In this document: positions 8,198-58,581 of the stretch, piece by piece
Layout: each line of letters opens with the position of its first letter
Numbering within the stretch: the first letter of the stretch is position 1
Assembly: GCA_963702095.1 (NCBI GenBank)
Contig: OY969706.1
Span: 1,056,001-1,120,000 of the forward strand
Direction: 5' to 3'
From: Candidatus Bathyarchaeota archaeon
Lineage (GTDB): Archaea; Thermoproteota; Bathyarchaeia; Bathyarchaeales; Bathycorpusculaceae
DNA length: 64,000 nucleotides
Notes under the pieces: generated by a model
Database searches by the model: none
What the model saw: only the letters and a program-made list of their open reading frames with translations
Told to the model about the DNA's origin: nothing
Translations under genes and position numbers: made by a program

Positions 8198-8216
8198 TGT
8201 TCAATCTTATTGACTA

Positions 8217-9882: not shown

Positions 9883-10425
9883 TTACTGTGTTGTTCTCTC
9901 ATGTGAACAGTTCTCGGCTAGACGCTCTGTTAGATAGTAGAATCTTGGAACTGTACGCTGTGGATTGGCAACGATTTTGCCTTTCCGTCGCAAACGAAGG
10001 ATAATTCGCCTGAATGCATCATGTTTGAGCTCTAAAAAGTCTTGATAGCTGAATTCACGCTTTATGTCGTTTGCTTTGTTTAGGATGTAGCCCTCAAGAA
10101 GAAGACTACTAAATGTTCTCTGATACTCCTTCTTTACACAACTCAAATCATAGGGCTCGCGCCGGGGCTTGCTGACCTGGTATTGGAAAACGTTGGTCTG
10201 CTGAATATTGATAACCTGTTTCCCACTGCGAACCTCCGCAGCGCCCTCAGTTCCTTTCATGAAGGCGTCTACTAAGCTTAGGGTGATGTGGCATACGTCC
10301 ATGCCGTTATCTTTGGCCCACTGGACATATTCCTTCCAGCGCTGATAATGCCGCATGTTCGGCGCCCTAAAATTACAGATCAAATTCTTGGGCTGAACAC
10401 CACTGACCGCTTTTTGCTCTTCCAC
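9883..10425 (-). CDS. Putative DNA-binding protein (RHH-like N-terminus, wHTH-like C-terminus)
   Basis: 180-aa ORF; C-terminal FRRIILRLRRKGKI...PRFYYL wing pattern. Confidence 0.5.
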   Translation of the reverse strand: MEEQKAVSGVQPKNLICNFRAPNMRHYQRWKEYVQWAKDNGMDVCHITLSLVDAFMKGTEGAAEVRSGKQVINIQQTNVFQYQVSKPRREPYDLSCVKKEYQRTFSSLLLEGYILNKANDIKREFSYQDFLELKHDAFRRIILRLRRKGKIVANPQRTVPRFYYLTERLAENCSHERTTQ

Positions 10426-10540
10426 TTGCTATCTCAGCCCCAAAACAAAAGAAAAAAATGGGTGGTGAAAAGTCAGTACAAAAGTCTCACGTGTGCGGCG
10501 GATCTGGATACGTAAAAATCGTATAAATGCAAGACATGTA

Positions 10541-10555
10541 TGGCGGGTCCGACGG
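10541..10555. repeat. Attachment-site core, a copy of the tRNA-Lys 3' end
   Basis: TGGCGGGTCCGACGG is identical to 58504-58518 and lies 45 bp from the integrase stop. Confidence 0.85.
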
Positions 10556-10600
10556 TTGTAGACCACATACACACGAAAGAATACTAGATTTTTGGGGTAT

Positions 10601-12094
10601 TTAGGTAGCCTCCTTACGGATAATCTGCTTAAGATTCTCTGCAAGAATCGATAGCTGATGATTCTGCGTCTGGTCCTGTGTTTCTGTGTGGTTGCCTCGG
10701 ATTAATGCATCTTTGGATAGGATTTCTTCTGGGTTTCCGCCCCATGCGCGTATGATCTCTTTGAGCTGGTCAATTCTGTTAGCTTGGGTCTTAGGTCTAA
10801 TCGCTAAGCCGGCTGTCTGGTAGAGGTTTCTTAGGGTTTCTATGCCTAAGCTCTGGACGTCTTCGTAAGTGTTGATTGTGTGTCCCATCATGTACTCGAT
10901 GATTTCGGTGTCGATTTTTGCTGTGCTGAGTTGGCTTCGGAAGAATTTTCTCAAGCTGTGAGTTCTAACGGTGTACATCCAACTGTTGGGTAGTTTTTTA
11001 GAGACGTTAGTGCTGACTGCTAAAGTATGTACGATGTGTCTGATGGCTTTCTCGCTGACGCCTAACACTCGGTTTGTGACTTGTTGGTTTCGGATGAGTG
11101 GGGCATCGTCTGTTAGGGTTTCTGGTGGCATTGATCTGCCGCCTCTTTGTCGGTCTTGAAGGTACAGTTTTAGCAGTTGGCATGCTTCTGCGTTTATGAA
11201 GGTGTCGTAGTCGTGGTATTTTCCTTTGGTTATGGCGGCTTCAACGTGGATGTGGATGGGTACGCGGCCTGCTTCATAGTCTTCTTTTATGTGTCGGTAT
11301 TTGAGTTTGGCAAAGGTTCCTTCACGGAATGCGCCTGAGGTTATAGCTGCGATGATGAATGCTTCTCGTACTGCGGCTTTGTCTAGCATCAATGCGATTT
11401 CTTCTGGTTTTGGCGCTCGGTCTTTGTATGTTACTTTGCGGCTTAGCGGTTCGTCGAGTTCAACTTTTTTTACTCCGTTAACTCGGTAGAAAGTTTTTAT
11501 GGATTTTATGTGGTTGCTGACTGCGCCTGAGCTGAGGTCTTGGTCTTGGAGGTGGGCTAAGTAGTCGCTTAAGAATTCGCAGTGGCTTTGCACTTTTATT
11601 GGGTCTGGGATTGCGCCGACGGGTTTGACGTCTTGGATGATTATATCGGGGTTATGGCCTAACCATTCTGCGTATTTCTTGGTTTTAGTCGTGTAAATAA
11701 TGCAGCTGGAGTGCGAGGCTGAGCAGTGTCTTAAGAAGTGTCGTGCGATTTTTAGCATGCTCTGGTACTCAAAGATGTATGGAATTATGCTTGACTGGTT
11801 TCTTAGGCATGAGCGTATGATGTAGTCTACGAGTCCTTTTTCTTGGGCAGCTAAGATTTTGCTGAGTTGGATGGTTATAGGCTGTCGGAGTTTCCAGCCG
11901 TCTATGCTTCGCTCGATGGTGACGGTGTCGCCTTGGATTATCAGCGGTAGGTTGAGGCTTTTTAGTTCTTCAACGGAGAGGTTGCGGTTGCGGGTTATAG
12001 CGGAGGCTAAAGATGCTGTGCGTTGTAGCAATCTAGTTTTCTCCTTTGGAGCTTTTTGCTCTTCGAGTTTTTCGCTCCGATGGTCGGAACGCAT
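10601..12094 (-). CDS. Tyrosine recombinase/integrase
   Basis: FREGT (R), TKGK (K), HSLRKFF (HxxR), MMGH...Y catalytic residues. Confidence 0.93.
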   Translation of the reverse strand: MRSDHRSEKLEEQKAPKEKTRLLQRTASLASAITRNRNLSVEELKSLNLPLIIQGDTVTIERSIDGWKLRQPITIQLSKILAAQEKGLVDYIIRSCLRNQSSIIPYIFEYQSMLKIARHFLRHCSASHSSCIIYTTKTKKYAEWLGHNPDIIIQDVKPVGAIPDPIKVQSHCEFLSDYLAHLQDQDLSSGAVSNHIKSIKTFYRVNGVKKVELDEPLSRKVTYKDRAPKPEEIALMLDKAAVREAFIIAAITSGAFREGTFAKLKYRHIKEDYEAGRVPIHIHVEAAITKGKYHDYDTFINAEACQLLKLYLQDRQRGGRSMPPETLTDDAPLIRNQQVTNRVLGVSEKAIRHIVHTLAVSTNVSKKLPNSWMYTVRTHSLRKFFRSQLSTAKIDTEIIEYMMGHTINTYEDVQSLGIETLRNLYQTAGLAIRPKTQANRIDQLKEIIRAWGGNPEEILSKDALIRGNHTETQDQTQNHQLSILAENLKQIIRKEAT

Positions 12095-12542: not shown

Positions 12543-12873
12543 AGTCTAAATCCGATATTCCAAGCGTATCGCACAGATTCTTGAATGCCTGCAAAGCTTC
12601 CACTTGCTTTTTTTGGTCAGAAATCGATAGAATTCTGTTTTTGAGTAGTTCAAGCTCAGCCTTCAGGTCCAACTCTTCGATAAGCTGTAGTCTTTGTTCA
12701 TGGTCGTTTAGTACAAAGTTGATTTTGTTTAGGATGGCGCCGATGTCTGCGATGATTTCCTGAACCGATACTTTTTTGGGTTTTACCAAGCCCTTTTCAC
12801 CTTGACCAACTCTCAGGCTCATCATAAAAAGTATCTGCCCCCGCAAAGTGCTCATCACTTTGAAGGGTACCAC
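12529..12873 (-). CDS. Coiled-coil hypothetical protein
   Basis: Heptad Leu pattern; co-directional with neighbours. Confidence 0.55.
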   Translation of the reverse strand: MVPFKVMSTLRGQILFMMSLRVGQGEKGLVKPKKVSVQEIIADIGAILNKINFVLNDHEQRLQLIEELDLKAELELLKNRILSISDQKKQVEALQAFKNLCDTLGISDLDFVKS

Positions 12874-13381
12874 AAAGTGACGTATCTTTTACAGATATAT
12901 TGAGAGCACGTCAACCATGATTTCTAAGTCAGTTTCTTTTGCGACTTGGATAAATTCGTTTAGGTTTGTCTTGCTAAGGGTAAGGGCAGCTTCTGCTTTG
13001 ATGCTTAATGTGTAAAGTGGTGATAAAAAGTGGGCTTTTGCTGGTCGCACTCCATACTTTATTATCCAGCCCTGCTCACACAAGGCCTTCATGCGCCTAT
13101 CGACACTTTGCCGTTTGACGTGCCTAAAACCCTTAATATGCCTAATTTTCAAGTACATATCATAACTTGTCAGCGGGTTCTTTGCATCAAGAACTAGGAG
13201 TATAACACGGTTAAGTTTGGCTTCTCGGCCACTGAAGACATCAAGTTCTGTGCTCCTGTTTCTCTTCCGCGTCACAGATGTTTACCCTCCAGACGGCTTT
13301 GGAGGGCAAGAAAGCATGGAGTTTAGTTCTTACCATGCCCTGCTGTTGTTTTGGGCAGGCAGACGCTCGCTTCTCCTTTCA
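12874..13381. repeat. Imperfect direct repeat unit A1 (wHTH gene plus leader)
   Basis: Aligns by eye with 16256-16738, e.g. caaagtgacgtat and gtcacagatgt...ccagacgg. Confidence 0.8.
12889..13275 (-). CDS. wHTH protein (paralog of 16271..16654)
   Basis: VFSGREAKLN...LTSYDMYLKIR...SVDRRMKALCEQGWI. Confidence 0.75.
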   Translation of the reverse strand: MTRKRNRSTELDVFSGREAKLNRVILLVLDAKNPLTSYDMYLKIRHIKGFRHVKRQSVDRRMKALCEQGWIIKYGVRPAKAHFLSPLYTLSIKAEAALTLSKTNLNEFIQVAKETDLEIMVDVLSIYL

Positions 13382-16029: not shown

Positions 16030-16146
16030 CCTTGGCTCAAAGCGAGTGGTTATGGGCGTCTTTTTCTTGCCTAAAGAGGCGGTGCTCCCAGAGTTTAGCG
16101 TGTAACGATTCTTGTCAGGGCAGGGTAATTAATCAACTGCGATGGC
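16030..16146. repeat. Conserved non-coding element B1
   Basis: Shares tctttttcttgcctaaagaggcggtgct, gagttt(a)agcgtgtaa and flanks with 20706-20837. Confidence 0.8.
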
Positions 16147-16255
16147 ATTAACCAGAGCGCACTCTCATTTTCAAATACTGGCAAGATATTAAAAAAAGTC
16201 AAATTCGGGTGCATCATACACCTTAAAGAAAAACATTTACCGATAAGGATACTGC

Positions 16256-16738
16256 AAAGTGACGTATTTCTTATAGACATATTGATAAGGTGTCGATAAG
16301 CATTTGCAGGTTGGTTTCTGGGGCTGTTTGAAGATAATCGTTTAGGTCTTTTTTGTTAAGGGCTAGTGCTGCTTGTGCCCTGATGTTTAATTTATAGAGC
16401 GGTGAGAGAAAATGCGCTTTTGCTGGCCTTATTCCCTCCTTCTTTAGCCAGCCTTGTTGGCAGAGTGCTTTTACTCGTCTATCGACACTTTGCCGTTTGA
16501 CATTCCTGTATCCTTTGATGGCTCTAATTTTCAAGTACATGTCATAGCTTGTTAGAAGCTTATTAGAGAGAACCAGGAAGATTATGAGGTTCAGTTTGGC
16601 CTGTCGGCCACTGAAAACCGCTAATTCTGTGCCCTTGGCTCTCTTCCTTGTCACAGATGTCTACTCCCCAGACGGATAAGGGAGCAAAAAAGCCACTGAC
16701 CTTTGGCTTACCTTTCAGAGGCACGCCTGCTCCTTTCA
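16256..16738. repeat. Imperfect direct repeat unit A2 (wHTH gene plus leader)
   Basis: Aligns with 12874-13381. Confidence 0.8.
16271..16654 (-). CDS. wHTH protein (paralog of 12889..13275)
   Basis: Shared LTSYDMYLKIR, VKRQSVDRR and RPAKAHFLSPLY. Confidence 0.75.
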   Translation of the reverse strand: MTRKRAKGTELAVFSGRQAKLNLIIFLVLSNKLLTSYDMYLKIRAIKGYRNVKRQSVDRRVKALCQQGWLKKEGIRPAKAHFLSPLYKLNIRAQAALALNKKDLNDYLQTAPETNLQMLIDTLSICL

Positions 16739-20705: not shown

Positions 20706-20837
20706 CTTGGCTACAAAGCATGAGGCTATGGAAATCTTTTTCTTGCCTAAAGAGGCGGTGCTTCTGGAGTTTAAGCGTGTAAACGGTTTTGAGACTTTGT
20801 ATGTCAATATGAGGTTTCAGATCAGCGCTACCGATGG
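20706..20837. repeat. Conserved non-coding element B2
   Basis: Copy of 16030-16146. Confidence 0.8.
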
Positions 20838-20947: not shown

Positions 20948-23662
20948 CTAAAGGTCATCAGGGTCTATGCCGTGCAAAGTTTTGTTGGATTTAAACAACT
21001 CAATTATTCTTTCAGCTGTAAGTTTACCCTGCCAAAATTGAACAATCATGTCACCGATAATAGGCGCTGAAATCAGGGTCACCTTGGAACTAATTGCATT
21101 ATCCTTTGCAACATCAGCAAAATCTGGATAACCCAAAGTCATGTTCACTACAGGTTTGTATTTAGCCCCTTTACCAAGAACTTCCTCCGCTTCAATAGCC
21201 GAGACCCGCCCAATTTCTTTTCGTTTTACTTCAATTGCAATTAAGCCTTCTGGAATAGTAATCAAAATGTCTGGACTGTGCTGGTCTTTATCCCCCACAA
21301 ATTCAGACTTGATACCAAACTCAGCAGTAAACACCTGTGCCAAGTGCCTTGCTAAGTCGTCGCCGTGAGTTTCATAAAGCCCATCGATTGCACCCGTTTC
21401 TTTTCCCATCTTCTTTGCTAGCCTAATTTGACTGGACCTCTTTCTTTGGGCTTCGTTTTTGATATACGCTTCAACTGACTCTTTTATTCGCAATGCCAGA
21501 GAGTCTCCGATATCAGAAACTTTTGCCAACTCGTCAATGCTGGCTTTAAGAATATTATCGATGTCAACGAATCCTGCTTTTACCAGATTCATTGCCCGCC
21601 TTCTATGTATGCCTTGAATTCTTAACCTAATTATCGGAAGTGCTTCTTTGGGTACACCAAAATAAATGCGCTCTGACAAGTCGTATAGGAATTTGACGAA
21701 ATCATCGTCAAAATTGAAAAGAGGTTTCTCTGCTAAGCGCGCAAGACCATGAAGTATCCATTGGATATTGTCAGCCACCCTGTGAATTACACCTGGCGGT
21801 GCATATTGGCTTAATTCAATGTATTGTGCTCCCTCTGTCCATCTTAAAAGCATTCGAGTTGTCCTTAGACTTGCTAAGAAGATGTCAGGGGAGGGTTTGT
21901 ATATGAAAGCATCTTTATGCATAAACCAAATTGCTTGTAATTCTTGTGTTTCCGCTTGGCTTTTGGGGGGATAAACCCTTTCAGCGCCATTGGTGCAACA
22001 ACAGAGATGAATAATTCCCTCAGTGATTAATTCGTAGTTACCCTTGGAAAATTTAGCTTCATTGGCTTGAAGTACGGTTTTAAGAAGGATTATTGCTTTT
22101 GGGGTAAGTAGCTCTTCTGCACATCGTAAGCCTAGTTCAGTTGCCTCTAACTTTCCATTTTCTTTTACTAAGCCACCATTTTTGAGTACGCCTATTTCTT
22201 TTTCTATCATTTCTACGATTTCTTTTTTGTAAGTCTCTGGCTTATCGATAGAATATTGAAAACCGAAAAGTGTGTTTTGGAGACAGAAACTTAATTCGTC
22301 TGTGTTAGAGCAAGTTTTAGAGCTTATTAGTTGTAATAACGAGCAGTCTAAGCCTTCACATTTCGAAATTTGAGAGGTAATCCTTTCAGGTTTCGTATTT
22401 ACGTAGTTATCCCAAAAGTATTCTAAAGTTCTCTCATCAGACGCCAACAAAATTGATCTGCCAAACTGGTCGGGTCCCCTTAATCGTCCAGCTCTTCCTG
22501 AAATATTTTTGTAACTTGACACTGAGAGTGGTTGACCATCATAATATCGGGTGAAAAGAATGACAGCATTTTTTGCTGGTGTATTGACTCCAGCAGAAAG
22601 TGTTGGTGTGGTGCAAATTATTCGGATATTTCCATTCTTAAATTCTTTCTCGACGAACCTACGTTCATCAGCTAGCAAACCTGAATGATGGAAAGATACG
22701 CCATGTGGAACAGACTTTTTGAGTTTGGCAGTGGTAGGTGTTGCCTCTAACAGCTCATCGAGTTTCTCCAATTCACGCTCAAGTTGAGGAAGTATCGGCA
22801 TCTCTTTTGCCAAACCTTCAGCAAGTTCCTCTGCCTTAAGTTGTGTGTTAACAAAAACTAAGCATTGTTCTGTTTTGCTTGTTTGGACTATTTCCCCGTA
22901 TGTCTGTATCATTAAACCTTTTTCAATTCCGACATTCCCAGAATTGAATTCTCTATATAGGAAATCTCTATTATTGAGGGCTTGCCCATGAAACTTAATA
23001 GGAGCTGTTCCTGAGTAGAAAATGCCTTCTCTAAGTTCAACATCCCTCTCTTGAATGTTTATAAGACCACAGCTGAGCCATTTTGCAAGAATATCAGCAT
23101 TTGTGATAGTAGCGGAAAGTCCAATAATTTGAATATCTTTGGTAAAGAAGATTAACCGTGTAAGTAACATTTCAAGGGAAATCCCACGAGTATTATCGCC
23201 TATATGCTGTATTTCGTCGATTACAACTAAGCCTATATTGTCCAGAATCTTGGGTCTTTTTACTATTAATGAGTTAAGCTTTTCATATGTTGCAATTATT
23301 ACGTCAAAGGATAGCAACTCATTATCAAATTCATAATGATCAGATGTGGAAATAGCGGTTTTTAGTCCCCAGGTGCCGTATTTTTCTTCAAAGTCTTTGT
23401 ACATTTGTTCGGCTAACGCTCGTAGAGGAACTAAAAAGAAGCTTTTTTTATCTTGTTTTTTTGAAGCGTTTAGAGCTGCAAGTTCGCCTATGAAGGTCTT
23501 ACCAGTATTTGTTGGAGCACTTACAAGAAGGTTCTTGCCTTCAAAAAGACCTGATTGAACTGCCGCTTCTTGTGCTTTTGTAAGACTTTCAAAGCATAGT
23601 TCTTTAAGCCGGTCAATGATCGTCTGACTTAGGCCAAACCCTGCGAGCTCATCAATACGCAT
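20948..23662 (-). CDS. Hel308/Ski2-like SF2 helicase with HhH and a C-terminal PD-(D/E)XK nuclease domain
   Basis: APTNTGKT, DEIQ, GLSAT, FHHSGL, TPTLSAGVNTP, SGRAGR; C-terminal SPDILI...IAIEVK. Confidence 0.88.
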   Translation of the reverse strand: MRIDELAGFGLSQTIIDRLKELCFESLTKAQEAAVQSGLFEGKNLLVSAPTNTGKTFIGELAALNASKKQDKKSFFLVPLRALAEQMYKDFEEKYGTWGLKTAISTSDHYEFDNELLSFDVIIATYEKLNSLIVKRPKILDNIGLVVIDEIQHIGDNTRGISLEMLLTRLIFFTKDIQIIGLSATITNADILAKWLSCGLINIQERDVELREGIFYSGTAPIKFHGQALNNRDFLYREFNSGNVGIEKGLMIQTYGEIVQTSKTEQCLVFVNTQLKAEELAEGLAKEMPILPQLERELEKLDELLEATPTTAKLKKSVPHGVSFHHSGLLADERRFVEKEFKNGNIRIICTTPTLSAGVNTPAKNAVILFTRYYDGQPLSVSSYKNISGRAGRLRGPDQFGRSILLASDERTLEYFWDNYVNTKPERITSQISKCEGLDCSLLQLISSKTCSNTDELSFCLQNTLFGFQYSIDKPETYKKEIVEMIEKEIGVLKNGGLVKENGKLEATELGLRCAEELLTPKAIILLKTVLQANEAKFSKGNYELITEGIIHLCCCTNGAERVYPPKSQAETQELQAIWFMHKDAFIYKPSPDIFLASLRTTRMLLRWTEGAQYIELSQYAPPGVIHRVADNIQWILHGLARLAEKPLFNFDDDFVKFLYDLSERIYFGVPKEALPIIRLRIQGIHRRRAMNLVKAGFVDIDNILKASIDELAKVSDIGDSLALRIKESVEAYIKNEAQRKRSSQIRLAKKMGKETGAIDGLYETHGDDLARHLAQVFTAEFGIKSEFVGDKDQHSPDILITIPEGLIAIEVKRKEIGRVSAIEAEEVLGKGAKYKPVVNMTLGYPDFADVAKDNAISSKVTLISAPIIGDMIVQFWQGKLTAERIIELFKSNKTLHGIDPDDL

Positions 23663-23739
23663 TCTGTTTACCTAATGAATGCTTATTGCTAGCGTCAATA
23701 TATAAGCTAACTCGCTATTCATGGTTCGACAAGGTATTA

Positions 23740-24450
23740 CTATAAAACCTTTGTTTCGTTTAGTAACTCAGTTGTTTTTTCAATAAGTAAATCTACAAGT
23801 TCCCCCCGCTCAACATAGTCAAATTCATAGACGATTCGAGTGTAGTCAACATAAGCACTATCAGTTCTGACAACATCGAGGATACAGGGATTTATCAATT
23901 GGTGAATATTTCTTAATCGTTTCAACTTGTCAGCAGCCGATTGGGGGTTTTCATTTGGTCTTATTTCTGGAAAGTCAGGGGTTGGAGCAAATCTGTAATA
24001 ATTCTGAAAAGGGTCCTGATAATCTCGGAGCTTTTCAAATCGAGGATTCATGGGTTTAACCTCTAAATGGTGAACTACACCATTTCGGAACACTTGTATG
24101 GTTTCATATAGACTCCTCCATTTTTCTCGAAGCGAAGGCGTAGGTGTAAACTTGCAGTTATCGGTCTCCGTTAGTTGATATCCTCTTTTATCTTGATGCA
24201 TTGCAGAATGGTTGTAACGAGTTGCGCGACAATCGGGTGTTCCATCGAAAATTTCTATGGTTGTCTCTCTGAGAACCGCAAGAATAGCAACATATGTCGG
24301 TAAGTCTGTGCCTTTAAGTGAGACCCAATCGTTCCTTACGGCGTCCCACCACTGCTTAGTTACTTCTAAACTTCGGCACCAATCATAACATATTTCACAT
24401 TTTAGCATACTAGAGCGATATGTGGCATACTGTTCATAGCATTTTCTCAA
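23740..24450 (-). CDS. Putative HEPN-domain protein
   Basis: Helical protein with Rx4H motif FRNGVVH. Confidence 0.5.
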   Translation of the reverse strand: MRKCYEQYATYRSSMLKCEICYDWCRSLEVTKQWWDAVRNDWVSLKGTDLPTYVAILAVLRETTIEIFDGTPDCRATRYNHSAMHQDKRGYQLTETDNCKFTPTPSLREKWRSLYETIQVFRNGVVHHLEVKPMNPRFEKLRDYQDPFQNYYRFAPTPDFPEIRPNENPQSAADKLKRLRNIHQLINPCILDVVRTDSAYVDYTRIVYEFDYVERGELVDLLIEKTTELLNETKVL

Positions 24451-24572
24451 ATTATCTGCCTAAGAGTCATTCAGAAAAGCCTGCTGATGAATTTATGGAA
24501 AAAGAGAAATACCAAGAATAGAGTTATGGATAGGTTATCCCAAGCATAGAATGCCCAGATTTCCTTTGAGTA

Positions 24573-26162
24573 ATGCTTGGAAAGGAAAATGAAATGCAGG
24601 ATAAATGTGAAAAAGAGGTTGACGACGCCTCATACGTAGTAGCGCTCGGATATTCTAACGTACCTCAAATTGTTAAAGAGAACCCTGTTATTGTAGTTGG
24701 AATATTAACAACAAAAAATTTAATGGATCAGTTAGAAAATGTGGAGTTCGATAAAAAAGAGAATGTAATTCATAGAAAAAATAGTCTTCTTGAACTCGAA
24801 GAAATAGCCGAAGATCTCTCAGAATACGTTCTTGAGTTTAGGGTTAAAATAATTGAGTCTATGACTCACCCCATTAGTGAGATAAAAGAAGTATATACTT
24901 CGATAATAAAAGACCTCATGGAAGGAACACTTTACCAATTCCAAAAAAGCATAGTTTACACTCGAAAGGTACTAGATTATGGCTTTGAGGAAAAGGAAAT
25001 TGCACCCGACCTTCCAAGTAATTCAAAAGTAATATATTGCCCGAAAAAGGATCCTAATAAATTCATAAGATTGGCAAGACTTCTTGCAAGACTTCACTAT
25101 GAAAGAGAAAAAACCATTACGTTATCAAGCGCTTTGGACCGAGTAAAAAGAAGTTACCCCAATAATTTCCAAATTGTTCGTATACGTTGGAATAGCCCGT
25201 CAATTGATGATTACAATGATCTTAACGTTGGCCCACCTTTTATGGTTATGAAGAAACCATTTGCAGCGCATTATGAAACTCAGTCCATTATGGTTGGTAA
25301 ACGGCTTAATATTTCACCTATCGCCCGTTTTTGCAGCGGGCAAGATAATGATGGCGAGATATCAAGATGTATACACAGTAATGGAAGCGAGAATCCATAC
25401 GGAGCTCTTGCAATTGACTCCTCTGGTGAGACGTGTGAAGATTGTTCCGCCCAGACGCGTTATCTAAAATGTGCGTACCAGAGACCTGCGTGCGATGGCA
25501 AGACCGTAGCCTGCAAAAATTATGCTTTTGCAGGAATTTTTTGTTTGGGTGCACACGCATTATATGTAACGCATTTTGGAAACACATTGAAAGTGGGAAC
25601 TGCTTTTGGAAGTAATGTAATCGGAAGATTACTAGAACAAGGTGCTGCTAGTGCTCTCGTAATATACCCAATTAATGGGGTAAAAATAGCAAGTGATCTT
25701 GAGCTAGCGATTACACGTTGCCTCAAAGAGAGGTTTATCCAAGGAACTGAACAATTGTGTGGTGGTGAGATTTCAAAGGTCGTATTTAAGGGACCGTCTA
25801 ATGAATACAGATTAAGTACTTTTCTACAAACATGGCATAATACTCGAGTTGAGATGTTGGAGGATATCCGTCGATACCTTTTCTCGGCAACTTTAAAGCT
25901 AGAGCAAGGTAACATCCATTTGAATAAAGCAAGCGTTGATTCCTCAATTGTTTCTTTAACTGATTGTTATGAGAATCCTGGTAACTCGTTTGAATTTGAA
26001 AAGAACTTAAAAGTAGTCAGAAAACGGTTCCAACAGTGTCAATCATCATTCACAGGCAAAGTTGTTGGATATAGAGGACCGTTTGTTTTTCTAGATTCAG
26101 GCAGTATATTAGATTTGAAAGCTATACAAGGCTTTGTGGTGGAGGGAAATTTAAGTGAGTGA
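24573..26162 (+). CDS. DUF2797-like Cys-rich/GIY-YIG-type protein with N-terminal extension
   Basis: Cys clusters followed by HALYVTHFGNTLKVGT...RLLEQGA..A...LE; terminal GKVVGYRG.F...DLKAIQG. Confidence 0.75.
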   Translation: MLGKENEMQDKCEKEVDDASYVVALGYSNVPQIVKENPVIVVGILTTKNLMDQLENVEFDKKENVIHRKNSLLELEEIAEDLSEYVLEFRVKIIESMTHPISEIKEVYTSIIKDLMEGTLYQFQKSIVYTRKVLDYGFEEKEIAPDLPSNSKVIYCPKKDPNKFIRLARLLARLHYEREKTITLSSALDRVKRSYPNNFQIVRIRWNSPSIDDYNDLNVGPPFMVMKKPFAAHYETQSIMVGKRLNISPIARFCSGQDNDGEISRCIHSNGSENPYGALAIDSSGETCEDCSAQTRYLKCAYQRPACDGKTVACKNYAFAGIFCLGAHALYVTHFGNTLKVGTAFGSNVIGRLLEQGAASALVIYPINGVKIASDLELAITRCLKERFIQGTEQLCGGEISKVVFKGPSNEYRLSTFLQTWHNTRVEMLEDIRRYLFSATLKLEQGNIHLNKASVDSSIVSLTDCYENPGNSFEFEKNLKVVRKRFQQCQSSFTGKVVGYRGPFVFLDSGSILDLKAIQGFVVEGNLSE

Positions 26163-28683
26163 TGACTATTCTTACGATTCGTACTTTTTAGAACTATTTG
26201 AGTTACAAACAGAGGAATTCTTGACCAGTTTTAGGGAATTACCCTTCTCACTATACCTTCCTCAACATTCAGAGAAAGTGCGCGCTCTATTTCCAAAAGA
26301 CTTCAAACGATTTGCATATTTTTCAGGGATGCTTGAATCGGGGGATTTTATTACCGCCTATATGGAGAAAAATCGTCAAGCATACCTTGTTTCTTCAAGT
26401 GATTTATCGACAAAACAATTTTTTGCGTTTGGAAGACAAGAATCCGATTATAAAGTTACCTTTAAAAAAATAGAAAACATTTCAGCTGCCGAGGTTTTGC
26501 AGCATGCTCCTTGGTTGATGGATCATTTTCTTTATTCATTCTTACGAAAGTCCATTCCTAATAACTTCAGATGCGAGGGTTCAGTGGCTTACGACATTAG
26601 TGCTGATTTACTTACTGGGAAAGAGGTCAAATCAACCAACGCACTTCTATCTAATTTGGCAGTATACCCCGCAGTAACCTTTTCAATTAACCACTATGGC
26701 GAAAAAATATATATTCATCTATCTCCGACCACCAGAATTTTGTCCAAAGCATCGATTCACAGGATTCAGCAGAATGCTGACTTCTCAAAAGACATAGTAA
26801 AGTATGTACGTTTAGATCTTGGCAAAATCAGCAGGTTTGCCGAAATTAAGGAAATCACCGAATTGCATAGTGATGTAAAAATTAATTCTGAAGCTTTTGG
26901 AAATAGAAATTTTCTTGAATTCGCTAGAGCCAATTACCCTGACATTCAACTGAACGATCCCAAAGCCAAATTGGCGATAGTTATTCCTTCGGGTTCTTCA
27001 AATTCATGGGTTTTCTCCTCAGAGGCCATGTATCCTTCATTCAATTTCCAAGCTATTGATGCTCTAGATCCCAAATTTTTTAAAAGCCTTCTTGGCATCA
27101 TAAAGGCTAGATCAGTAGCCAGATTGGAAAACGCAAGGCAGTTTGTTACAGCCATAAATCCGCTGAGTTCACCTTGCGGAGTAATTGAGATTAATGAAAC
27201 ACCTTTCACATCGAGAATATTGGTCAACGCTCCTTTCCTTCACAGCAATAAAATTGACGAAAGAAACCTCGAAAGACTCTCTGTGTCAGATGATGGCGCC
27301 GTTTTCGAGGCTCCATCAATTAGTTTAAGGGTTGCCGATAGCAAAGGTACATTCAGTGAAAAAACTATTTATCCGGGAATTGATCGTAAATTTGCTAATC
27401 TAAACGATTTGATGAAATGGCCAAATTTAGCACCTCTTGAGCCTATCCCCGAAATAAAAATTTGTTTGATAGTCGATAAAAAATTGGAAAATCAATGGAG
27501 CGCCGAGAAGGAAAACTTTAAACAAGCGTTGCTAAAAGGTGTGAATAATTACAAGTATTCATTTTCAGGGTTTGAGCAAACTTTTAAGTGCCCAATCGTG
27601 ATGTTGAATGAGTTTATAGTCGGCGACTTTTTTGGGGCTGAATTCGAAGAAGTTGTTAAGAAAATAAGTCCGGCTAACTTTGACTGCATTATTCTTATAA
27701 TTCCCCGATGGCTTGAATCAGCCCTTTCATCTAAGCAGATTTATTTGGTTCCAAAGGAAAAAATCATGCAAAAGGGCGTTCCAGTGCAGGTTATCGCAAA
27801 TGATCCAACTAGGGTAAAAGGAACGCTCAAGGATAAAGTTAGAGATCCATTTGTCATGTTTGGCTTGGCATTAAATATTGCTGCTAAACCTGGATATCGG
27901 CTTACTGCTTTCTCTAAAGAATTTGCTGACAAAATAATCGGAAACTCTGTAGTAATGGGCTATAACATAACGCGGATAACTCCTAAGTTGAGGAGTCTCG
28001 AACAAAACAGTACTTTAGAAGAGCGTATGGGTAAAACTATCCCTCTTGTAGCCCCACTCTTTATTATTGACAATAGAGGCTCTCGCATACTTCATTGGAA
28101 TTTTTATCAACCAACTTCCGAAGTAACGCTTTTTTCTGAGTTTGGTGATAAAATATTTAACAAAATTCCCAATGATGTTCAAAGGGTAATCATTCACAAA
28201 GACGGCCCCTTCAAGGATAATGAACTGAAGGTTCTTGAAAGTTTTAATACCGCCGACAGAAAAGTTATCCCCATCTCGATCACGCAATCAAATGCTTTGA
28301 GAATGCATAATGCATCGCATATAGGTGTAGGCAACGAGATTCAGCGTGGCGTCTTTCTAAAGTTGGATAACCGCAACTTCGAACTAGCAACAACGACTAT
28401 TCAAAGCTGGGACGCAACAAATTGGGGTTGGCCGCATCCTATTCACGTTCGAATACATGCAAATCAGGAATATGTTCAAAACCTGAAATTACTGTATCAT
28501 ATTTTCGCTCTTACTAAGATGCATTTTGGATCGCAACGTCCTACGCGGGCGCCAATTTCTATCCATTACGCAAATATGGTATCGACATTTCTACGTGCCC
28601 TTGGTGACGAAGCTCCTTCATTCCATCAAAGCTTCGAAAAAGTCTTTAATGAGAAGGGAAGAATGCCCTTATGGTTCCTTTAA
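26155..28683 (+). CDS. ago: Long prokaryotic Argonaute, predicted catalytically inactive
   Basis: 842 aa; MID pocket Y..K..Q..K (IYLVPK, GVPVQVI, NIAAKPG); PIWI motifs VVMGYN, IIHKDG, LTKM, RAPISIHYAN, C-terminal PLWFL. Confidence 0.9.
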   Translation: MSDDYSYDSYFLELFELQTEEFLTSFRELPFSLYLPQHSEKVRALFPKDFKRFAYFSGMLESGDFITAYMEKNRQAYLVSSSDLSTKQFFAFGRQESDYKVTFKKIENISAAEVLQHAPWLMDHFLYSFLRKSIPNNFRCEGSVAYDISADLLTGKEVKSTNALLSNLAVYPAVTFSINHYGEKIYIHLSPTTRILSKASIHRIQQNADFSKDIVKYVRLDLGKISRFAEIKEITELHSDVKINSEAFGNRNFLEFARANYPDIQLNDPKAKLAIVIPSGSSNSWVFSSEAMYPSFNFQAIDALDPKFFKSLLGIIKARSVARLENARQFVTAINPLSSPCGVIEINETPFTSRILVNAPFLHSNKIDERNLERLSVSDDGAVFEAPSISLRVADSKGTFSEKTIYPGIDRKFANLNDLMKWPNLAPLEPIPEIKICLIVDKKLENQWSAEKENFKQALLKGVNNYKYSFSGFEQTFKCPIVMLNEFIVGDFFGAEFEEVVKKISPANFDCIILIIPRWLESALSSKQIYLVPKEKIMQKGVPVQVIANDPTRVKGTLKDKVRDPFVMFGLALNIAAKPGYRLTAFSKEFADKIIGNSVVMGYNITRITPKLRSLEQNSTLEERMGKTIPLVAPLFIIDNRGSRILHWNFYQPTSEVTLFSEFGDKIFNKIPNDVQRVIIHKDGPFKDNELKVLESFNTADRKVIPISITQSNALRMHNASHIGVGNEIQRGVFLKLDNRNFELATTTIQSWDATNWGWPHPIHVRIHANQEYVQNLKLLYHIFALTKMHFGSQRPTRAPISIHYANMVSTFLRALGDEAPSFHQSFEKVFNEKGRMPLWFL

Positions 28684-28694
28684 GGTGAATAGAT

Positions 28695-29366
28695 ATGGTT
28701 GGTGGCGACACTGGAAAAGAAGGTATTGGTTATGAAGAATTGACTTTAGCGTTTCTCCTTTGTGGACCCTACGAAGTCGGCGCTTGTGAGTATGTTAACT
28801 TTGAAAGAGCAAGGGAATGGGAAATCAACCCTAAGCTTTTCAACTCAAAAATTCTCCAAATCCCATTTACAATTGATGTAGATTTTTTTATTAAAACGCC
28901 AGCTGTATACCATATTTTCTTCTGCAAAAGTTCAAGAAAGCTGGAAAAAAATAGCCCAAAAGAGTACTTTGAGAAAGCCCTCAGTACTTTTTGCGTTCTT
29001 GAAAGTCGTGGAAAAGAAAAATTTCAGGATAATTTTAAGTACTATTTCTTTTCCGACGCCATTCCTTGGCATTTAGTTAAGGATTTGCCAACTCGAGACA
29101 CTATCGAGCTCTCAGCAACGTTACTCAAATCAATGGGTTGTAAGAACACTGCAAAAAATAGGCAAATGTTTTCTCAACCGATTATAGCGGCAGTAAAACA
29201 AAAAACTAGATTTTGCCAGATTGACGAGGCGCTAATAAAAGAAAGAAAACCGCGTTTTCCTCAATTTGATGATATCGTCTCTCAGATTGCACAAGCTAAG
29301 CGTGAAGTTGAGCAAGCAATAAGTGCGCTTTTCCTCGGACTCTGTAGCTCAAGTATCTTTAGGTAA
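28695..29366 (+). CDS. Putative PD-(D/E)XK nuclease (Cap4/DUF4297-like N-terminus), pAgo-associated
   Basis: GGDTGKEGIGYE...DVD...FFCKS pattern; AGGTGA RBS; starts 11 nt after the ago stop. Confidence 0.55.
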   Translation: MVGGDTGKEGIGYEELTLAFLLCGPYEVGACEYVNFERAREWEINPKLFNSKILQIPFTIDVDFFIKTPAVYHIFFCKSSRKLEKNSPKEYFEKALSTFCVLESRGKEKFQDNFKYYFFSDAIPWHLVKDLPTRDTIELSATLLKSMGCKNTAKNRQMFSQPIIAAVKQKTRFCQIDEALIKERKPRFPQFDDIVSQIAQAKREVEQAISALFLGLCSSSIFR

Positions 29367-29838
29367 AGGTAGCAATCATTTAGGCAAACAATTCACTGTT
29401 GGAAAAACCACCTTCTCAATAGGAAATTATAAAAAAATACTTAGCGCTGCTAAATCATTTCAAAAGTCAAACAAAGAGCTAAAAATATTTGGTCACTTAA
29501 TTGATGAATTCAAGTTTTTAGGGAGTGACGAACCCGAAAGTATTGCAGGTATCTGTATTCTTTTTAATGACATTGTCTTCCCCCAAAATAATCTGGAAAT
29601 TTCGATGGCTATTACTCTAAATAATTACGATATTATTTTGTTCAAGCATAAGGAATTGTCAGACTTAATATGGGAAAAGTTGGATAGAAAACAAGGAAAA
29701 TACAACCTGTCTAATGTTAATGTACTTCGACAATTTGATGAAAAAACCGCTGTCGCTATTGCAATGCGAGCTTTTTCTAAAGGTCGATCAACCGATTTAA
29801 TGGAAAATAAATTCATTGTGCGAACCGACGAGATGTAG
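29323..29838 (+). CDS. Hypothetical protein, possibly the frameshifted C-terminal half of 28695..29366
   Basis: 44-nt overlap, GTG start without a clear RBS. Confidence 0.5.
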   Translation: MRFSSDSVAQVSLGKGSNHLGKQFTVGKTTFSIGNYKKILSAAKSFQKSNKELKIFGHLIDEFKFLGSDEPESIAGICILFNDIVFPQNNLEISMAITLNNYDIILFKHKELSDLIWEKLDRKQGKYNLSNVNVLRQFDEKTAVAIAMRAFSKGRSTDLMENKFIVRTDEM

Positions 29839-29939
29839 TAGACGTGTATTTCTAATTCTAATCTAATTTATATACAAAATACTGACTACATTATACAAAT
29901 CTAACGATTTGCTAGAAAAACTATGGAAGTTCAAGAGCA

Positions 29940-32887
29940 ATGAGTTATTTTTGCAAAAACGTTGATAAGATTAAGCTGATGCAGAAAAGCGTTCCTACTG
30001 ACAAGGGTCTAAGAGAGTGCCAAATTGGTGCCTACTGGGCTGTTAATGCTCATTTTACATCTTCAGATGAACCTGCTCTTGTTGTAATGCCAACGGGTTC
30101 CGGAAAAACTGCATTAATAGAATTGTTGTCTTTTGGGTTAAAAGCAAAACGCGTACTTGTAATTACTCCGGGTGCTGTACTGCGTGATCAGTTAAAGGAT
30201 AACTTTCATGAGCTTACTGATTTAGTTGGACAAGGCATCCTTCCAGATGATATTGAGAAGCCAAAGGTTGACTGCCAAAATACTGTAATTACGTCAAAGG
30301 ATCAATGGGAACAACTCGAGAATTGTGATGTTATCGTATGCACACCGCATTCAATCAGCCCTAAGTATCATAAAGCAATTGCTCCTCCACCGGAAGGATT
30401 TTTCGATGTTGTCTTTTTCGACGAAGCACACCATATTAGGGCACCAAGCTGGGAAGAACTGCTTGGAATGTTTGGATCAAGCAAAAAAGTCCTCTTAACG
30501 GCCACTCCTTTCAGGCTTGACCAACTAAAAATGCTCGGTCGTATGATCTACAATTATCCGATTGAACGAGCAGTACAGAATAAAATTTACCAAAAAATAG
30601 AGTACCATAAAGTAGAAGTAGCAAATCCAGACGATCGGAATAGAGCCCTTTGCGATACAGTAAAAATAATTATGGGAGAAGAGAAAGAAAACGGTTTGAA
30701 ACCAAAAATTTTAGTACGAACCGATAAAGTGAAGAAATCAGATGCCCTAATTAAATTATACGCCGAAAATGGATTAAAAATCCGTAAAGTAGATTACACT
30801 CAAAATATGAATGCAAACAAAGCAGTTTTAACTAACCTTAAAGATGATAAAATAGATGGTATAGTTTGTGTGGGCATGCTTGGTGAGGGTATTGATATTC
30901 CTGCCCTCAAAATAGCAGTTTTACATGACCCCCCTAAATCCTTTCCACTCACCATTCAATTTATAGGCAGAATCTGTAGACCTAATGAAGCAAAAAAAGC
31001 ACATGTTGTTGCAGATCCTAAGCAAATAATTGAACGGGACACAAGTGATGAACTACGCCGCCTGTATGGATATGATAAAAAAGGTTGGCATGACCTCATT
31101 CCCGATATGGTTGACGAAGTGGTAGGTCGTGAGACAGAGATTCTTAGTTTGCCCTACCAAATCGGAAGTGGCCCATAAACGCCCAAGACATCAAACCATT
31201 TTACAGCGTTCAAATATATTCTTTGCAACCAGAGACCCTTAATTTAGATACTACCTGTAATTTTGCCGATGATGACATAGCAGTCTTCAAGCTACCGACA
31301 GCCAACGCCAATCTAAGAGTGTTTATCACTCAAAGAATAACTTCTCCTGCATGGGCTTCCAACTTAAGTAAAATCCGTGCTTTAACTTTTGATCTGCATT
31401 TATATTATTACCTGCCCGCAATAGGCTTTTTATTCGAATCAACAACTTTCAATCCTATCTCAGAAGAGATAAGGTATTCAATGACCAATGGACAGGAGCA
31501 AAAACTTCCTAGTGAGGAATTGGTTAAAGCCCTGAGATGTGCAGACCATTTAAACTTTAATATGTTAGGATTAGCGAGCGCTATTGGTTCTAGCCCGTCA
31601 ATTCCAAGTTATAAAACGTTAATGGGCAAGGAGGTCGAAGCTTCGATCGTTCCCACCGACTCACACATATTTATTCCAGGTCACGCTCTTGCAAGGAAAA
31701 AGACTGGCGAAACTATTGGCTTTTCATCATTTCAGGGGAAAATTTGGTCATTAAAGCGTGGAACAATCACACAATTCATTTCATGGTGCAATGAAGTTGC
31801 AGCTAACATTAATATGACTGCAGAAGTTTATTCGCTTCGCGATATTCCCTATCTGAATCCCATTAAAACGGCATGGAGCTTTTCAAGTAAGCCAATCGTA
31901 GTTACGGTGGACCCACATATTTCTGAGTATATAGCAACAATTATTCATCATGAGAGCGGGAAAGAAGACAACTCGATTATTTTTGGGGACCCAATTTTTG
32001 AAATAGTTGATAGTACAGACAAAGACCTATTCGTTACCTTCTATCCTAATTTCGCTGATAAAACATTTAGCATTAACATGTCATATAACATATCGAATAA
32101 CAGTTGGGCTGTTGCAGATTCAGGCTATTATGAACTAAAGCTTGAACCTTCAAATGCGATAGATGGAAAATTGAATTTTAGATTAGAGTATGCTTTCCAA
32201 GAAGAATTTCCGCCTTTTATCTATCTTACAAATGGAACTCTGATTAACGGGCGAACCCTAATTGAGCCAAAGCCTGAATATAAGGACATACCATTTCCTG
32301 AAGAGTGCTTTGTAAAAGGGCTAGTTTGGGATGATTGCAACATCAATAAGGAGTTCCTTAATAAGGGCGAAGCAGTTGGTACTAAAAAAACTATACATGA
32401 CTGGCTTGAGTCATGGCTGAGCAATAATTTGCCGCCGGATTCAATCATTTTTAAAGACCATGAAAGTGGTGAAATAGCTGATTTTATAGCGATTCAACCT
32501 GATGGTAAAATTATAGGTTTCTATCACTGTAAGTCTTCATCGACAAAGCAACCGGGCGCAAGCATTGGTCACATAAGTGCAGTCATGGACCAAGTTTTAA
32601 GGAGTATCTCTTTGGTCAATACGCGGACGCTCGTTGATAGACTATTAGAGCACAGTGACGGAAGGCGACCTAGGTCAAAATTTATCAGGGGTGATCGAGG
32701 TATGGTGAATCAATTGAAGGATACTTTTTCACCGTTAGATTGGTCATATCAAGTTTTCATTGTACAACCTGGTTTAGACTGCAAAGAGGCAGCGGTATAC
32801 GAAAATACTAAACTGCTATTGCTTACCTGCTATGAATGGCTAAAAGACATTGGAGCTAAACTAAGAATAATGGGGTTTTATAAATAA
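29940..32887 (+). CDS. ResIII/DEAH SF2 helicase with C-terminal PD-(D/E)XK nuclease, split by a frameshift near 31173
   Basis: MPTGSGKT, DEAHH, LTATP, GEGIDIP, QFIGR; second frame open from 31148 (PINAQDIKPFYSVQIY); DH..GEIADFIAI...YHCKSS. Confidence 0.82.
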
Positions 32888-34398: not shown

Positions 34399-35847
34399 TC
34401 ACCTTGGAATAACTGTTAAGAATGGTTCGGGTTCCATCTGCACGGTTGCAAACACGGCTAGCGCCGTACTCCAAAACACGTCATCATGGGTGCCGTTTGG
34501 ATGCGAGTATCCTATGGCGCCGTCCTTGCGTAGGTCATAGCGTTCCACGTTTAACTCGGTGCAGATGTCACCTCTGTATGGTCGCTCCCAATTGAGCAGT
34601 GGATAGTAGAATTGCTTGTTCATCATGCGCTGCTTTAGCAGGCTTGCCATCTCGCTCTTTCTTGGCACGCTAAAGTTGACGCCTTCGGCATTCTCTATGC
34701 CCGCAGTCTCCATGTCAGTGATGATGCTTGGGCCTTCCCGTGTAAAGTCAACCCTGATCTTCTGGAAACCGCCCCATCTATCCTGCAGCGCCTTTAGATA
34801 ACCGAGAACTTGAGCGTAGAGTGTGGGCTGCTGGAAAATCTTTAGGTGCCGAAGGAACAGCTTATCGTTTAGGCGCTCAACCACCGAAAGCACACAGTAA
34901 TCCCTTGTCTGCGCCAAGTCAAGTCCAGCAAAAAAGTCCCCTTCACAGCTAGCTTCAGGATTGAACTCTTGCAAATCCTCGCCGCAATTCTTCACTGTGC
35001 CCACGCAGGCAACAATTAAACTCTGAGCCAGCCAAACATCTTCATCCTCTGCCCACTCAGCTTCCATTTCCCGACGCCAACGTTGCGGGTCATCCCCGAA
35101 CTGACGCTTAATCTTCTCAACAATAGCAGGCTTAAGCGGACCATTAGGTTCAAGCGCATCAGTCCACCGAACATGTGACCGTGCAAAATCAGAGTAGTCT
35201 TTGTGGTTGCACATTTTCCAAAACAGCGAATCCGTATTCCAAGGCGTTGACGTGGCGATTAGTTTGCCGTTGGTTGTTCCAAGCGTAAACAGTATGGCAT
35301 CATAGAGCTCCTCGTCGTTAGGAACGAAATTGGCTTCTTCGATCCAGATTACTTTAAAGGTTGGGCCTCTGATTGTGTCGGGGTTGTTGGGGAAGGCTTC
35401 AATCATGCTGCCATTTGGCAACGTAATCCTTGTTTTTTGTATGTGCAGGCCTGGCTGCTGTGGAAGCTTTCGGCAAAAACCGCCCATGCGTCGTATGTTT
35501 AGTTTGGTTTGGCGCCAGCTTGGACCCACAATCGCGACATAGCTGTCAGGATGTTCCCAGGCGTATTTAAGAAGCAAAGCTGAAACCGAGAAGCTTTTCC
35601 CGGTTTGGCGTGCCCAGCGTACAGCGGTGAATTGGTTTTTCTCAAATTTCTCGGCTAACTCAAGCTGGTATTTGAAGGGTGTAAAGCCAAAAATCTGCTC
35701 AAAAAAGCCCTTAACATCCCTCTTTAAGGCATCGACATGGTTTTCGCTGGATTTTTCAACCGCTGCCACGTCCTCCCAGAGCTTGTTGTACTCCGAGAAG
35801 AGCTGATTAGGACGAAGTGCCCTGGGACTTTTTCCTAAGCGCCTCAT
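34399..35847 (-). CDS. terL: Terminase large subunit
   Basis: FKYQ, WARQTGKS, IRG..WIEEA, STP, GLDLAQTRD, HDDVFWS. Confidence 0.95.
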   Translation of the reverse strand: MRRLGKSPRALRPNQLFSEYNKLWEDVAAVEKSSENHVDALKRDVKGFFEQIFGFTPFKYQLELAEKFEKNQFTAVRWARQTGKSFSVSALLLKYAWEHPDSYVAIVGPSWRQTKLNIRRMGGFCRKLPQQPGLHIQKTRITLPNGSMIEAFPNNPDTIRGPTFKVIWIEEANFVPNDEELYDAILFTLGTTNGKLIATSTPWNTDSLFWKMCNHKDYSDFARSHVRWTDALEPNGPLKPAIVEKIKRQFGDDPQRWRREMEAEWAEDEDVWLAQSLIVACVGTVKNCGEDLQEFNPEASCEGDFFAGLDLAQTRDYCVLSVVERLNDKLFLRHLKIFQQPTLYAQVLGYLKALQDRWGGFQKIRVDFTREGPSIITDMETAGIENAEGVNFSVPRKSEMASLLKQRMMNKQFYYPLLNWERPYRGDICTELNVERYDLRKDGAIGYSHPNGTHDDVFWSTALAVFATVQMEPEPFLTVIPR

Positions 35848-58503: not shown

Positions 58504-58518
58504 TGGCGGGTCCGACGG
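58504..58518. repeat. Attachment-site core within tRNA-Lys
   Basis: Identical to 10541-10555. Confidence 0.85.
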
Positions 58519-58581
58519 GAGTTGAACCCGCGACCCTCGGATTAAAAGTCCGATGCTCTAGCCTGACTGAGCTACGGACCC
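58504..58581 (-). tRNA. trnK: tRNA-Lys(UUU), no intron, CCA encoded
   Basis: GGGTCCG acceptor stem, TCGGA-CTTTTAA-TCCGA anticodon arm, GGTTCAACTCC T-arm, ends CGGACCCGCCA. Confidence 0.97.

Follow-up and report, generated by a model that had tools for sequence, protein, structure and literature searches.

A conserved three-gene module around a predicted slicer-inactive, probable long Argonaute in an integrated element of a Bathyarchaeia-type archaeon

The window analysed here is a 64,000-nucleotide (nt) stretch of a Candidatus Bathyarchaeota genome (assembly GCA_963702095.1, contig OY969706.1, positions 1,056,001 to 1,120,000), which carries between its positions 24573 and 29838 three genes, hereafter the triad, with a gene for a prokaryotic Argonaute (pAgo) of 842 amino acids (aa) in the middle. 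The pAgo (gene 2) is preceded by a gene for a protein with a DUF2797 domain (gene 1) and followed by a gene that is split in this genome (gene 3). From sequence comparison and from analogy with characterised systems, we propose that the triad is probably a conserved, translationally coupled pAgo sensor–effector defence module of Bathyarchaeia-type archaea, carried here as accessory cargo of a ~48-kb element.

Order and recurrence of the triad

All four open reading frames (ORFs) between 24573 and 29838 lie on the + strand and encode 529, 842, 223 and 171 aa. Gene 1 (24573..26162, 529 aa, with a possible start at M8, 24594) and the pAgo gene (26155..28683, 842 aa, GTG start) share 8 nt, and 11 nt separate the pAgo stop from the next ATG; both values are exactly those given in a preliminary description of this DNA that was made from its letters and ORFs. 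The two remaining ORFs (28695..29366, 223 aa; 29323..29838, 171 aa, in the +1 frame) are the N-terminal and C-terminal pieces of gene 3. In the public annotation the pAgo (P0005, 784 aa) begins at Met59 and lacks the first 58 residues (26155–26328). All four homologues retain these 58 residues, and the start of the pAgo is therefore better placed at the GTG at 26155, which makes its gene overlap gene 1.

The same arrangement recurs outside this genome. Specifically, on a contig of a Bathyarchaeota metagenome-assembled genome (L001), ORFs of 519, 843 and 378 aa follow one another in this order, the first two overlapping by 4 nt and the last two separated by 9 nt, and a metagenome contig (L002) encodes products of 550, 842 and 386 aa, with an overlap of 8 nt; gene 3 begins 9–11 nt past the pAgo stop where the junction was read. 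Additionally, homologues of all three genes are present on contigs of 6662 and 68073 bp, so that the triad is counted at five loci, of which three were read directly and two deduced from homologues on contigs of equal length. Gene 1 shares 82% identity with its counterpart in L001 (L001:8439-9998), whose product starts at M8 of the window ORF, and the pAgo shares 65% with that of L001; judged by sequence identity, gene 1 is the most conserved of the three components. The preliminary description had read the locus as a multi-component archaeal pAgo system and had pointed to the neighbours of the homologues as a check. The conserved, overlapping three-gene operon agrees with the former, and the check, made in close relatives, comes out in its favour, with the order of the triad repeated in L001 and L002.

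Full-length members of the gene 1 family were found in this genome only, both among the 401 genomes of the phylum sample and among the 401 of the class sample, the latter including 40 same-genus genomes of which 0 have one. In line with this, the pAgo profile has no match in four same-genus genomes (G688, G746, G718 and G747). Such a sporadic spread is typical of defence cargo. Taken together, these comparisons indicate by sequence that the triad is a rare, conserved and real pAgo module.

The Argonaute and its upstream partner

By homology, gene 2 is a genuine PIWI protein, that is, a prokaryotic Argonaute. Residues 431–819 match the PADLOC pAgo profile PDLC02436 (E 5.3e-38), and a five-member family profile matches the Clostridium perfringens Argonaute CpAgo (9jh7, E 4.5e-10) and, less strongly, the SPARTA pAgo (E 5.4e-4), while the Pfam Piwi match (E 1.4e-4, 21.7 bits) lies under its cut-off of 28.9. 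The preliminary description had named absence of a PIWI fold as a refuting result; the PADLOC and CpAgo profile matches show PIWI homology instead. A word-indexed search of 5.8 billion proteins returned four relatives at 58–65% identity, plus the protein's own annotation.

The predicted guide-binding pocket of the MID domain is retained. Residues Y530, K534, Q545 and K578, with spacings of 4, 11 and 33, are invariant in 5/5 family members and conform to the YK-type pocket rule described in PMC6299218; these residues were assigned by motif and spacing rather than by structural alignment. The intact 5'-phosphate pocket of the preliminary description is thereby upheld.

The catalytic site, on the other hand, appears to be defective. 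The motifs GYNIT and HYANM are present in the translation, and N604, D683 and N807 are invariant in 5/5 family members. HMMER aligns D683 to the Asp of the CpAgo 'RDG' motif, the same Asp that is replaced by Ala in the deposited variant 9jh8, and N807 to the Asp of the CpAgo 'YAD' motif. N604, within GYNIT, is placed at tetrad position 1 by motif resemblance only, as no alignment with a solved Ago spanned it, and E656, at most one residue away from a Glu of CpAgo in the HMMER alignment, is a candidate for the glutamate finger. This gives N604-E656(?)-D683-N807 for the site, and the complete DEDX tetrad, which the preliminary description had named as contrary evidence, was not found. With Asn at tetrad positions 1 and 4 across the family, as had been claimed, and with D683 kept, the pAgo is predicted to be slicer-dead.

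As to its class, gene 2 is a probable long pAgo. A total of 430 residues precede the MID domain, and they give weak matches to PADLOC long-pAgo profiles (residues 175–352 to positions 163–336 of 742; residues 85–218 to positions 373–501 of 1030) and to CpAgo (residues 239–371 to 219–350), whereas Pfam PAZ gives no match up to E 10. The predicted inactivity of the PIWI site and the YK-type MID sequence fit the long-B clade, a combination that is also reported for some long-A pAgos (PMC6299218). Among solved structures ranked by sequence, the long-A CpAgo comes first (4.5e-10), followed by CtAgo (1.3e-3) and the long-B EcAgo (0.028), so that the long-B class implied in the preliminary description finds no support in this ranking. 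As a side observation, residues 65–172 (26347–26670) give a sub-threshold match to Pfam MutS domain II (E 0.0035–0.0084), a domain with an RNase H-like fold, which may reflect only the fold of the Ago N-lobe.

Gene 1 encodes, in order, an RNase HII-like N-domain, a Cys4 zinc ribbon, a DUF2797 core and a C-terminal beta domain. Pfam DUF2797 (PF10977) matches residues 287–387 over profile positions 29–129 of 227, well above the cut-off (E 1e-11, 45.6 bits versus 25), and residues 72–124 of the last, C-terminal fragment of gene 1 weakly match positions 188–227 (E 0.052). Precomputed PF10977 annotations are present on 6/7 of the gene 1 family members returned. When 1.84 billion cluster representatives were searched exhaustively with HMMER, 49 relatives emerged, most of them full-length at ~500 aa, and a 36-sequence alignment yielded an AlphaFold2 model of good quality (pLDDT 87, pTM 0.83).

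In this model the N-domain (residues ~19–186, 24627..25130, + strand) adopts a type-2 RNase H (HII/HIII) fold, which Foldseek supports at E 2.7e-5 and to which the sequence profile adds faint matches to the same RNase HII/HIII chains (E 0.07–0.7). Unlike RNase HII and HIII, the domain has no conserved Asp or Glu and is fused to a zinc ribbon and DUF2797. In particular, no D or E reaches 60% conservation in residues 1–200 (30–36 sequences with a residue there), so that the acidic DEDD active site was not found, and the conserved positions are instead A24, Y27, S28 (29/30), N29 (26/30), P38, K62, Y108, A168, R169 and Y176. By extrapolation from the profile alignment, Y27-S28-N29 lies near what we take to be the position of the first acidic pair of RNase HII. 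With no acidic residue conserved, RNase H activity is not to be expected of the N-domain.

The Cys-rich zinc-ribbon region (residues 254–324, 25332..25544, + strand) contains C254, C266, C288 and C291, which are invariant in 36/36 sequences, and a second set, C300, C307, C314 and C324, kept in 24 of the 33–36 sequences with a residue there. It is followed by the conserved DUF2797 core (residues 327–392, 25551..25748, + strand), which has a beta-beta-alpha-beta-alpha topology and in which Y331, G342, R352 and E377 are invariant (36/36) and K340 nearly so (35/36). By motif and topology only, this core resembles a GIY-YIG domain. The PF01541 (GIY-YIG) search of the genome marks two other genes and not gene 1, hhalign of family columns 300–400 against 19 genuine GIY-YIG domains gives a probability of 1.3% (E 0.041), and no GIY-YIG chain is among the top 50 Foldseek (PDB, BFVD) or VIA rows, which are filled by the RNase H domain. 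The preliminary description was thus borne out as to a Cys-rich, DUF2797-like upstream gene, with the Pfam match above cut-off and the zinc-ribbon cysteines conserved, and lost support as to the GIY-YIG label; the RNase HII-like N-domain was not mentioned there. A complex prediction of pAgo residues 431–842 with gene 1 scored 0.03, a value that counts neither for nor against an interaction.

The architecture of this partner, an RNase H fold with no acidic site joined to a zinc ribbon and DUF2797, was not found in the pAgo literature searched. No paper was found that links DUF2797, RNase HII-like or GIY-YIG proteins with pAgos, supplementary tables being outside the search, in keeping with the preliminary description, which knew of no DUF2797-like pAgo partner. 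The papers that mention DUF2797 describe a zinc ribbon and a function that is unknown, and the tight coupling to a pAgo is a first functional lead for this widespread family.

Two further observations concern gene 1. Stand-alone proteins of ~305–340 aa, whose similarity to gene 1 is confined to the zinc-ribbon/DUF2797 core (E 1e-9 to 3e-16), were seen at loci L026-L035 (genera g205 and g249, family f71) and at L005 (G340), and occur in 10/71 genomes of one Bathyarchaeia family. On another public contig (contig 5280), a 262-aa fragment (P0067) is 95% identical to gene 1, which indicates that the cassette occurs in almost identical form in one or more further samples.

The split third gene and the proposed mechanism

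The 223-aa ORF aligns to residues 3–213 of the 378-aa L001 protein with 64% identity, and the 171-aa ORF to residues 218–375 of the same protein with 47% identity. Because both align along one intact homologue, they are halves of one ~380-aa gene, of which the 223-aa ORF represents the N-terminal 56%. Intact homologues of 378–386 aa are present in L001, in L002 and as P0010-P0013. The preliminary description had placed a PD-(D/E)XK-like gene directly after the pAgo; the position is correct, the 223-aa product is half of a frameshifted gene, and its PD-(D/E)XK assignment finds no support in sequence searches.

The split raises the possibility that the triad is a decaying remnant, in which gene 3 is a pseudogene and the system is inert in this genome. 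We regard this as a serious possibility that we nonetheless lean against. A one-base +1 frameshift lies between ~29326 and ~29346, and the public annotation likewise calls only the 223-aa piece. Moreover, a ~90%-identical contig from a peat metagenome run (X3) has one base fewer at 29326 (one contig, depth 4). Against decay, genes 1 and 2 are intact and keep all family-invariant residues, and an indel error of the assembly is plausible; the best-matching DNA sequencing run shares 17% of sampled words with the window. Unless it is an assembly error, the frameshift may have crippled the system in this genome, and the intact L001 and L002 copies make the system directly testable.

The nature of the gene 3 product is tentatively suggested by weak fold-level likeness. 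Pfam gives no match in 6/6 family members at E up to 10. A structure model built from six sequences is poor (pLDDT 61), and with it Foldseek finds no PDB match at E <= 0.001; the best rows, at E 0.04–0.3, are LmuA, HerA-DUF4297 and Cap4. The top four VIA results, Avs3, Cap4, LmuA and HamA, likewise show a weak fold-level likeness to PD-(D/E)XK heads. Independently, the language-model neighbours of the homologue P0012 are ABC-3C effector clusters with CTD1 and Cap4_nuclease (0.93–0.95). Two independent weak signals therefore lead from gene 3 to Cap4-type effector heads. Gene 3 differs from the Cap4, LmuA, Avs3 and HamA heads (Cap4_nuclease, PF14130) in having no sequence or profile similarity to them, and their canonical D...(E/Q)xK motif could not be confidently located, the quality of the model being poor. 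Conserved residues of gene 3 include D60, D62 and K77. We regard 'Cap4-like nuclease effector', with a possible Cap4/LmuA-type nuclease domain in the N-terminal piece, as a lead whose prospects are roughly even.

On this basis, we propose that the pAgo would load short 5'-phosphorylated guides and sense, by sequence, the nucleic acid of invading viruses or plasmids. Since slicing by the pAgo is predicted to be lost, its partners would execute the response. Gene 3 would be the likely collateral effector, with a Cap4/LmuA-type nuclease head and a regulatory C-terminal domain, and would act by abortive infection or by degradation of invader DNA. Gene 1 might, more speculatively, bind the guide–target (RNA–DNA) duplex or process guide precursors via its degenerate RNase H-like domain, and the DUF2797 core might provide a second catalytic centre. 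Such a sensor–effector logic appears the most likely one because the triad shares the layout of inactive long-pAgo systems and has gene 3 in the position of the effector.

The inactive long pAgos characterised to date are described in PMC10620215 as carrying out RNA-guided sensing of invader DNA and activating a downstream nuclease, Sir2 or membrane effector, which agrees with the background given in the preliminary description. In EcBPAN, according to PMC13535254, the nuclease is autoinhibited, and the pAgo recruits it into a large, active assembly. Inactive Argonautes thus serve as sensors that switch on partner effectors, and each new partner has so far come with its own activation mechanism. 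Like the BPAN, BPAS and BPAM systems (EcAgo-bAgaN and others; PMC10620215, PMC13535254), the triad has an apparently full-length pAgo, with a PIWI site predicted to be dead and a MID pocket of the YK type, directly upstream of a putative toxic effector, with gene 3 sitting where bAgaN, bAgaS and bAgaM sit in the long-B systems, and guide-dependent sensing followed by effector activation is the likely shared logic. The triad differs from these systems in its extra and better-conserved upstream gene (RNase HII-like plus DUF2797), which was not found among the named partners, in its archaeal host, and in a pAgo that is not demonstrably of the long-B clade. Gene 3, for its part, shows no detectable similarity to the RecB-like bAgaN, the Sir2 or the transmembrane effectors: with respect to the downstream RecB-like PD-(D/E)XK nuclease of BPAN, the position matches, there is no Pfam or PADLOC family match, and the likeness is weak and at the level of the fold. 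The SiAgo-Aga1-Aga2 system (PMC11788926; bioRxiv 10.1101/2021.12.09.471704) is likewise described as archaeal and three-component, with an inactive pAgo that needs its accessory proteins. SiAgo is described as a (pseudo)short pAgo with a membrane effector, whereas the triad pAgo has 842 aa; for its partners, Pfam and PADLOC return neither a membrane effector nor any other known effector family, and no homology to Aga1 or Aga2 was detected.

The same gene order would also suit a machine for making guides or processing DNA, in which genes 1 and 3 make or trim guides and the pAgo silences by binding alone; RsAgo-like proteins lower plasmid gene expression. In favour of this, gene 1, which precedes the pAgo gene and runs into its start, shows the highest conservation in the triad, and guide-producing partners have precedents, namely the Agap-HEPN RNase with AmAgo (PMC11162769) and the Cas4-family ACE1 with long-A pAgos (PMC12094033). 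Yet no acidic residue is conserved in the RNase H-like domain of gene 1, a nuclease role of the DUF2797 core finds no support in the PF01541 search or in hhalign, and the inactive pAgos studied are described as acting through effectors (PMC10620215). We consider this reading unlikely. Still less probable, in our estimate, is a more elaborate form of sensing, in which the RNase HII-like domain of gene 1 would read the RNA–DNA hybrid of the pAgo and switch on a zinc-ribbon/DUF2797 nuclease or nucleotide-modifying enzyme, with gene 3 as a second, Cap4-like collateral effector. If this were true, it would give the first function for DUF2797 and a new three-component class of pAgo immunity.

Several points weigh against the sensor–effector interpretation. 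The synteny check covers only close relatives (58–65% pAgo identity), gene 1 having ~45 distant ones besides, and the sequencing runs listed for the window include no RNA run. The presence of Asn at two metal-ligand positions does not prove that all catalysis is lost. For the presumed effector, beyond the frameshift described above, Pfam, PADLOC and PHROG give no family match, a PF14130 (Cap4_nuclease) search of the genome (G000) gives 0 matches, and hhalign of gene 3 against two true Cap4_nuclease proteins gives a probability of 0.1%. As for gene 1, the canonical bacterial DUF2797 protein is described as low-variability and housekeeping-like, with its function unknown (PMC9425974), and G340 encodes a DUF2797-core protein that lacks the N-domain and has no pAgo in the two adjacent ORFs. 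Because core proteins of this kind occur with no adjacent pAgo, the DUF2797 core is not defence-specific.

The tRNA-Lys element

The triad lies in an element that is bounded by a tRNA gene. The 15 nt at the 3' terminus (58504–58518) of tRNA-Lys(TTT) (58504..58581, − strand) form the proximal attachment (att) core, and a 15-nt direct repeat of them, the distal core (10541..10555, + strand), lies 45 nt from the stop of a tyrosine integrase gene (10601..12094, − strand; Pfam Phage_integrase E 4.9e-7), a homologue of which adjoins tRNA-Lys in G746. For a 15-mer, 0.06 repeats are expected by chance, and the core has only two copies in the genome, which consists of one contig of 2.94 Mb. Between the repeats, at 10556–58503, the ~48-kb element holds the integrase, ABC transporters, PadR, PIN and a Hel308-like helicase, followed by the triad, a further helicase, the large terminase (TerL), the tail tube and other virion genes. 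The TerL gene (34399..35847, − strand; Pfam Terminase_6N 7.4e-15, PHROG 2 1.2e-37) and the tail-tube gene (43007–43867) belong to the provirus context and not to the triad. Att repeats, an integrase, virion genes and a cassette between the repeats, the features of a tRNA-targeting integrative element, were thus all found.

The boundary on the tRNA side is supported by comparison, in that, for most of the listed loci of the genus, homology with the right flank runs only as far as the 3' end of the tRNA. The left flank (7000–10560) has no match within 1.5 kb of 29 same-genus tRNA-Lys loci, and no clean empty site was found among them. The 48-kb element holds a head-tail provirus, and it may be either one virus or a composite. 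GC content is 0.37–0.40 over 22000–32000 (the Hel308-like gene, the triad and helicases) versus 0.47–0.49 at 40–46 kb (tail and capsid genes), and the low value fits a separately acquired defence islet inside the element.

Related DNA occupies the same tRNA-Lys in three of the four same-genus genomes that gave no pAgo match (G688, G746 and G718). At the tRNA-Lys of G746 there are a homologous integrase and PIN/HTH genes, with a further copy of the core 30.1 kb away, and G688 has homologues of the ~48.3–52.2 kb region 9–13 kb from its tRNA-Lys. In L001, the neighbours of the triad are cellular genes (folE2, GHMP kinase, CBS and DegT). Because of these related elements and the L001 locus, the triad is best regarded as mobile accessory cargo rather than a viral hallmark.

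The location of the triad also allows for the cassette to serve the provirus or mobile element itself, in superinfection exclusion, in competition with other elements or in the element's own replication or maintenance, a beneficiary that we think somewhat unlikely. The triad lies between att repeats together with an integrase, TerL and a tail tube, in a stretch with a low GC content of 0.37–0.39 beside helicase and nuclease-like genes, and Bathyarchaeia proviruses with a pPIWI gene are reported in PMC11705971. On the opposite side stand the cellular neighbourhood in L001, the related DNA at the tRNA-Lys of G688, G746 and G718 with no pAgo match, and IMG/VR, where scans limited to the peptide patterns used (for gene 1, from an 8-sequence alignment) turned up no relative of gene 1, the pAgo or gene 3. 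By tblastn, gene 1 has no match in plasmids or GenBank phages, and the pAgo has none in GenBank phages. Such a role concerns who benefits and is compatible with the same molecular mechanism. Accessory defence cargo with a sensor–effector logic stays our preferred reading. The statement in the preliminary description that the system is carried by a virus is right for this locus, which lies inside a tRNA-Lys element with head-tail genes, and specific to this genome, given the L001 neighbours and the negative IMG/VR and phage searches.

A provirus-borne pPIWI gene in Bathyarchaeia has already been published (PMC11705971). The provirus concerned, Bathyarchaeia tailed provirus 1 (BATPV1), resembles this element in being a head-tail provirus with an integrase, a tRNA, direct repeats and an Argonaute-family gene; its description names the pPIWI gene and no partner genes, and the comparison is by description only. 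The window provides a concrete case of an archaeal integrated element with provirus genes that carries an Argonaute module as exchangeable cargo.

Further observations concern the structure of such elements. Same-orientation pairs of the 15-nt core are present at G688:C1:1671117/1710893 (39.8 kb) and G746:C25:104493/134602 (30.1 kb), which suggests further integrated elements at such sites. In G746 (L089, G746:C25:104450-124400), the integrase gene lies beside the intact tRNA-Lys and converges on it, whereas in this genome it lies at the far end of the element and is co-directional with the displaced core copy. With the integrase placed and oriented differently in the window and in G746, the two genomes carry the element in opposite orientations with respect to the att core.

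Downstream of the triad, a ResIII/DEAD helicase (29940–31178, 412 aa) matches PHROG 16, 'DNA helicase' (3e-48), and is followed by a 554-aa ORF (31223–32887) with no Pfam family; neither is beside the triad in L001 or L002. Upstream, two pairs of direct repeats, one of 300 nt with 72% identity (12863–13162 / 16245–16544) and one of 60 nt with 83% identity (16038–16097 / 20714–20773), bracket the ABC-transporter/PIN cargo between the integrase and the Hel308-like gene.

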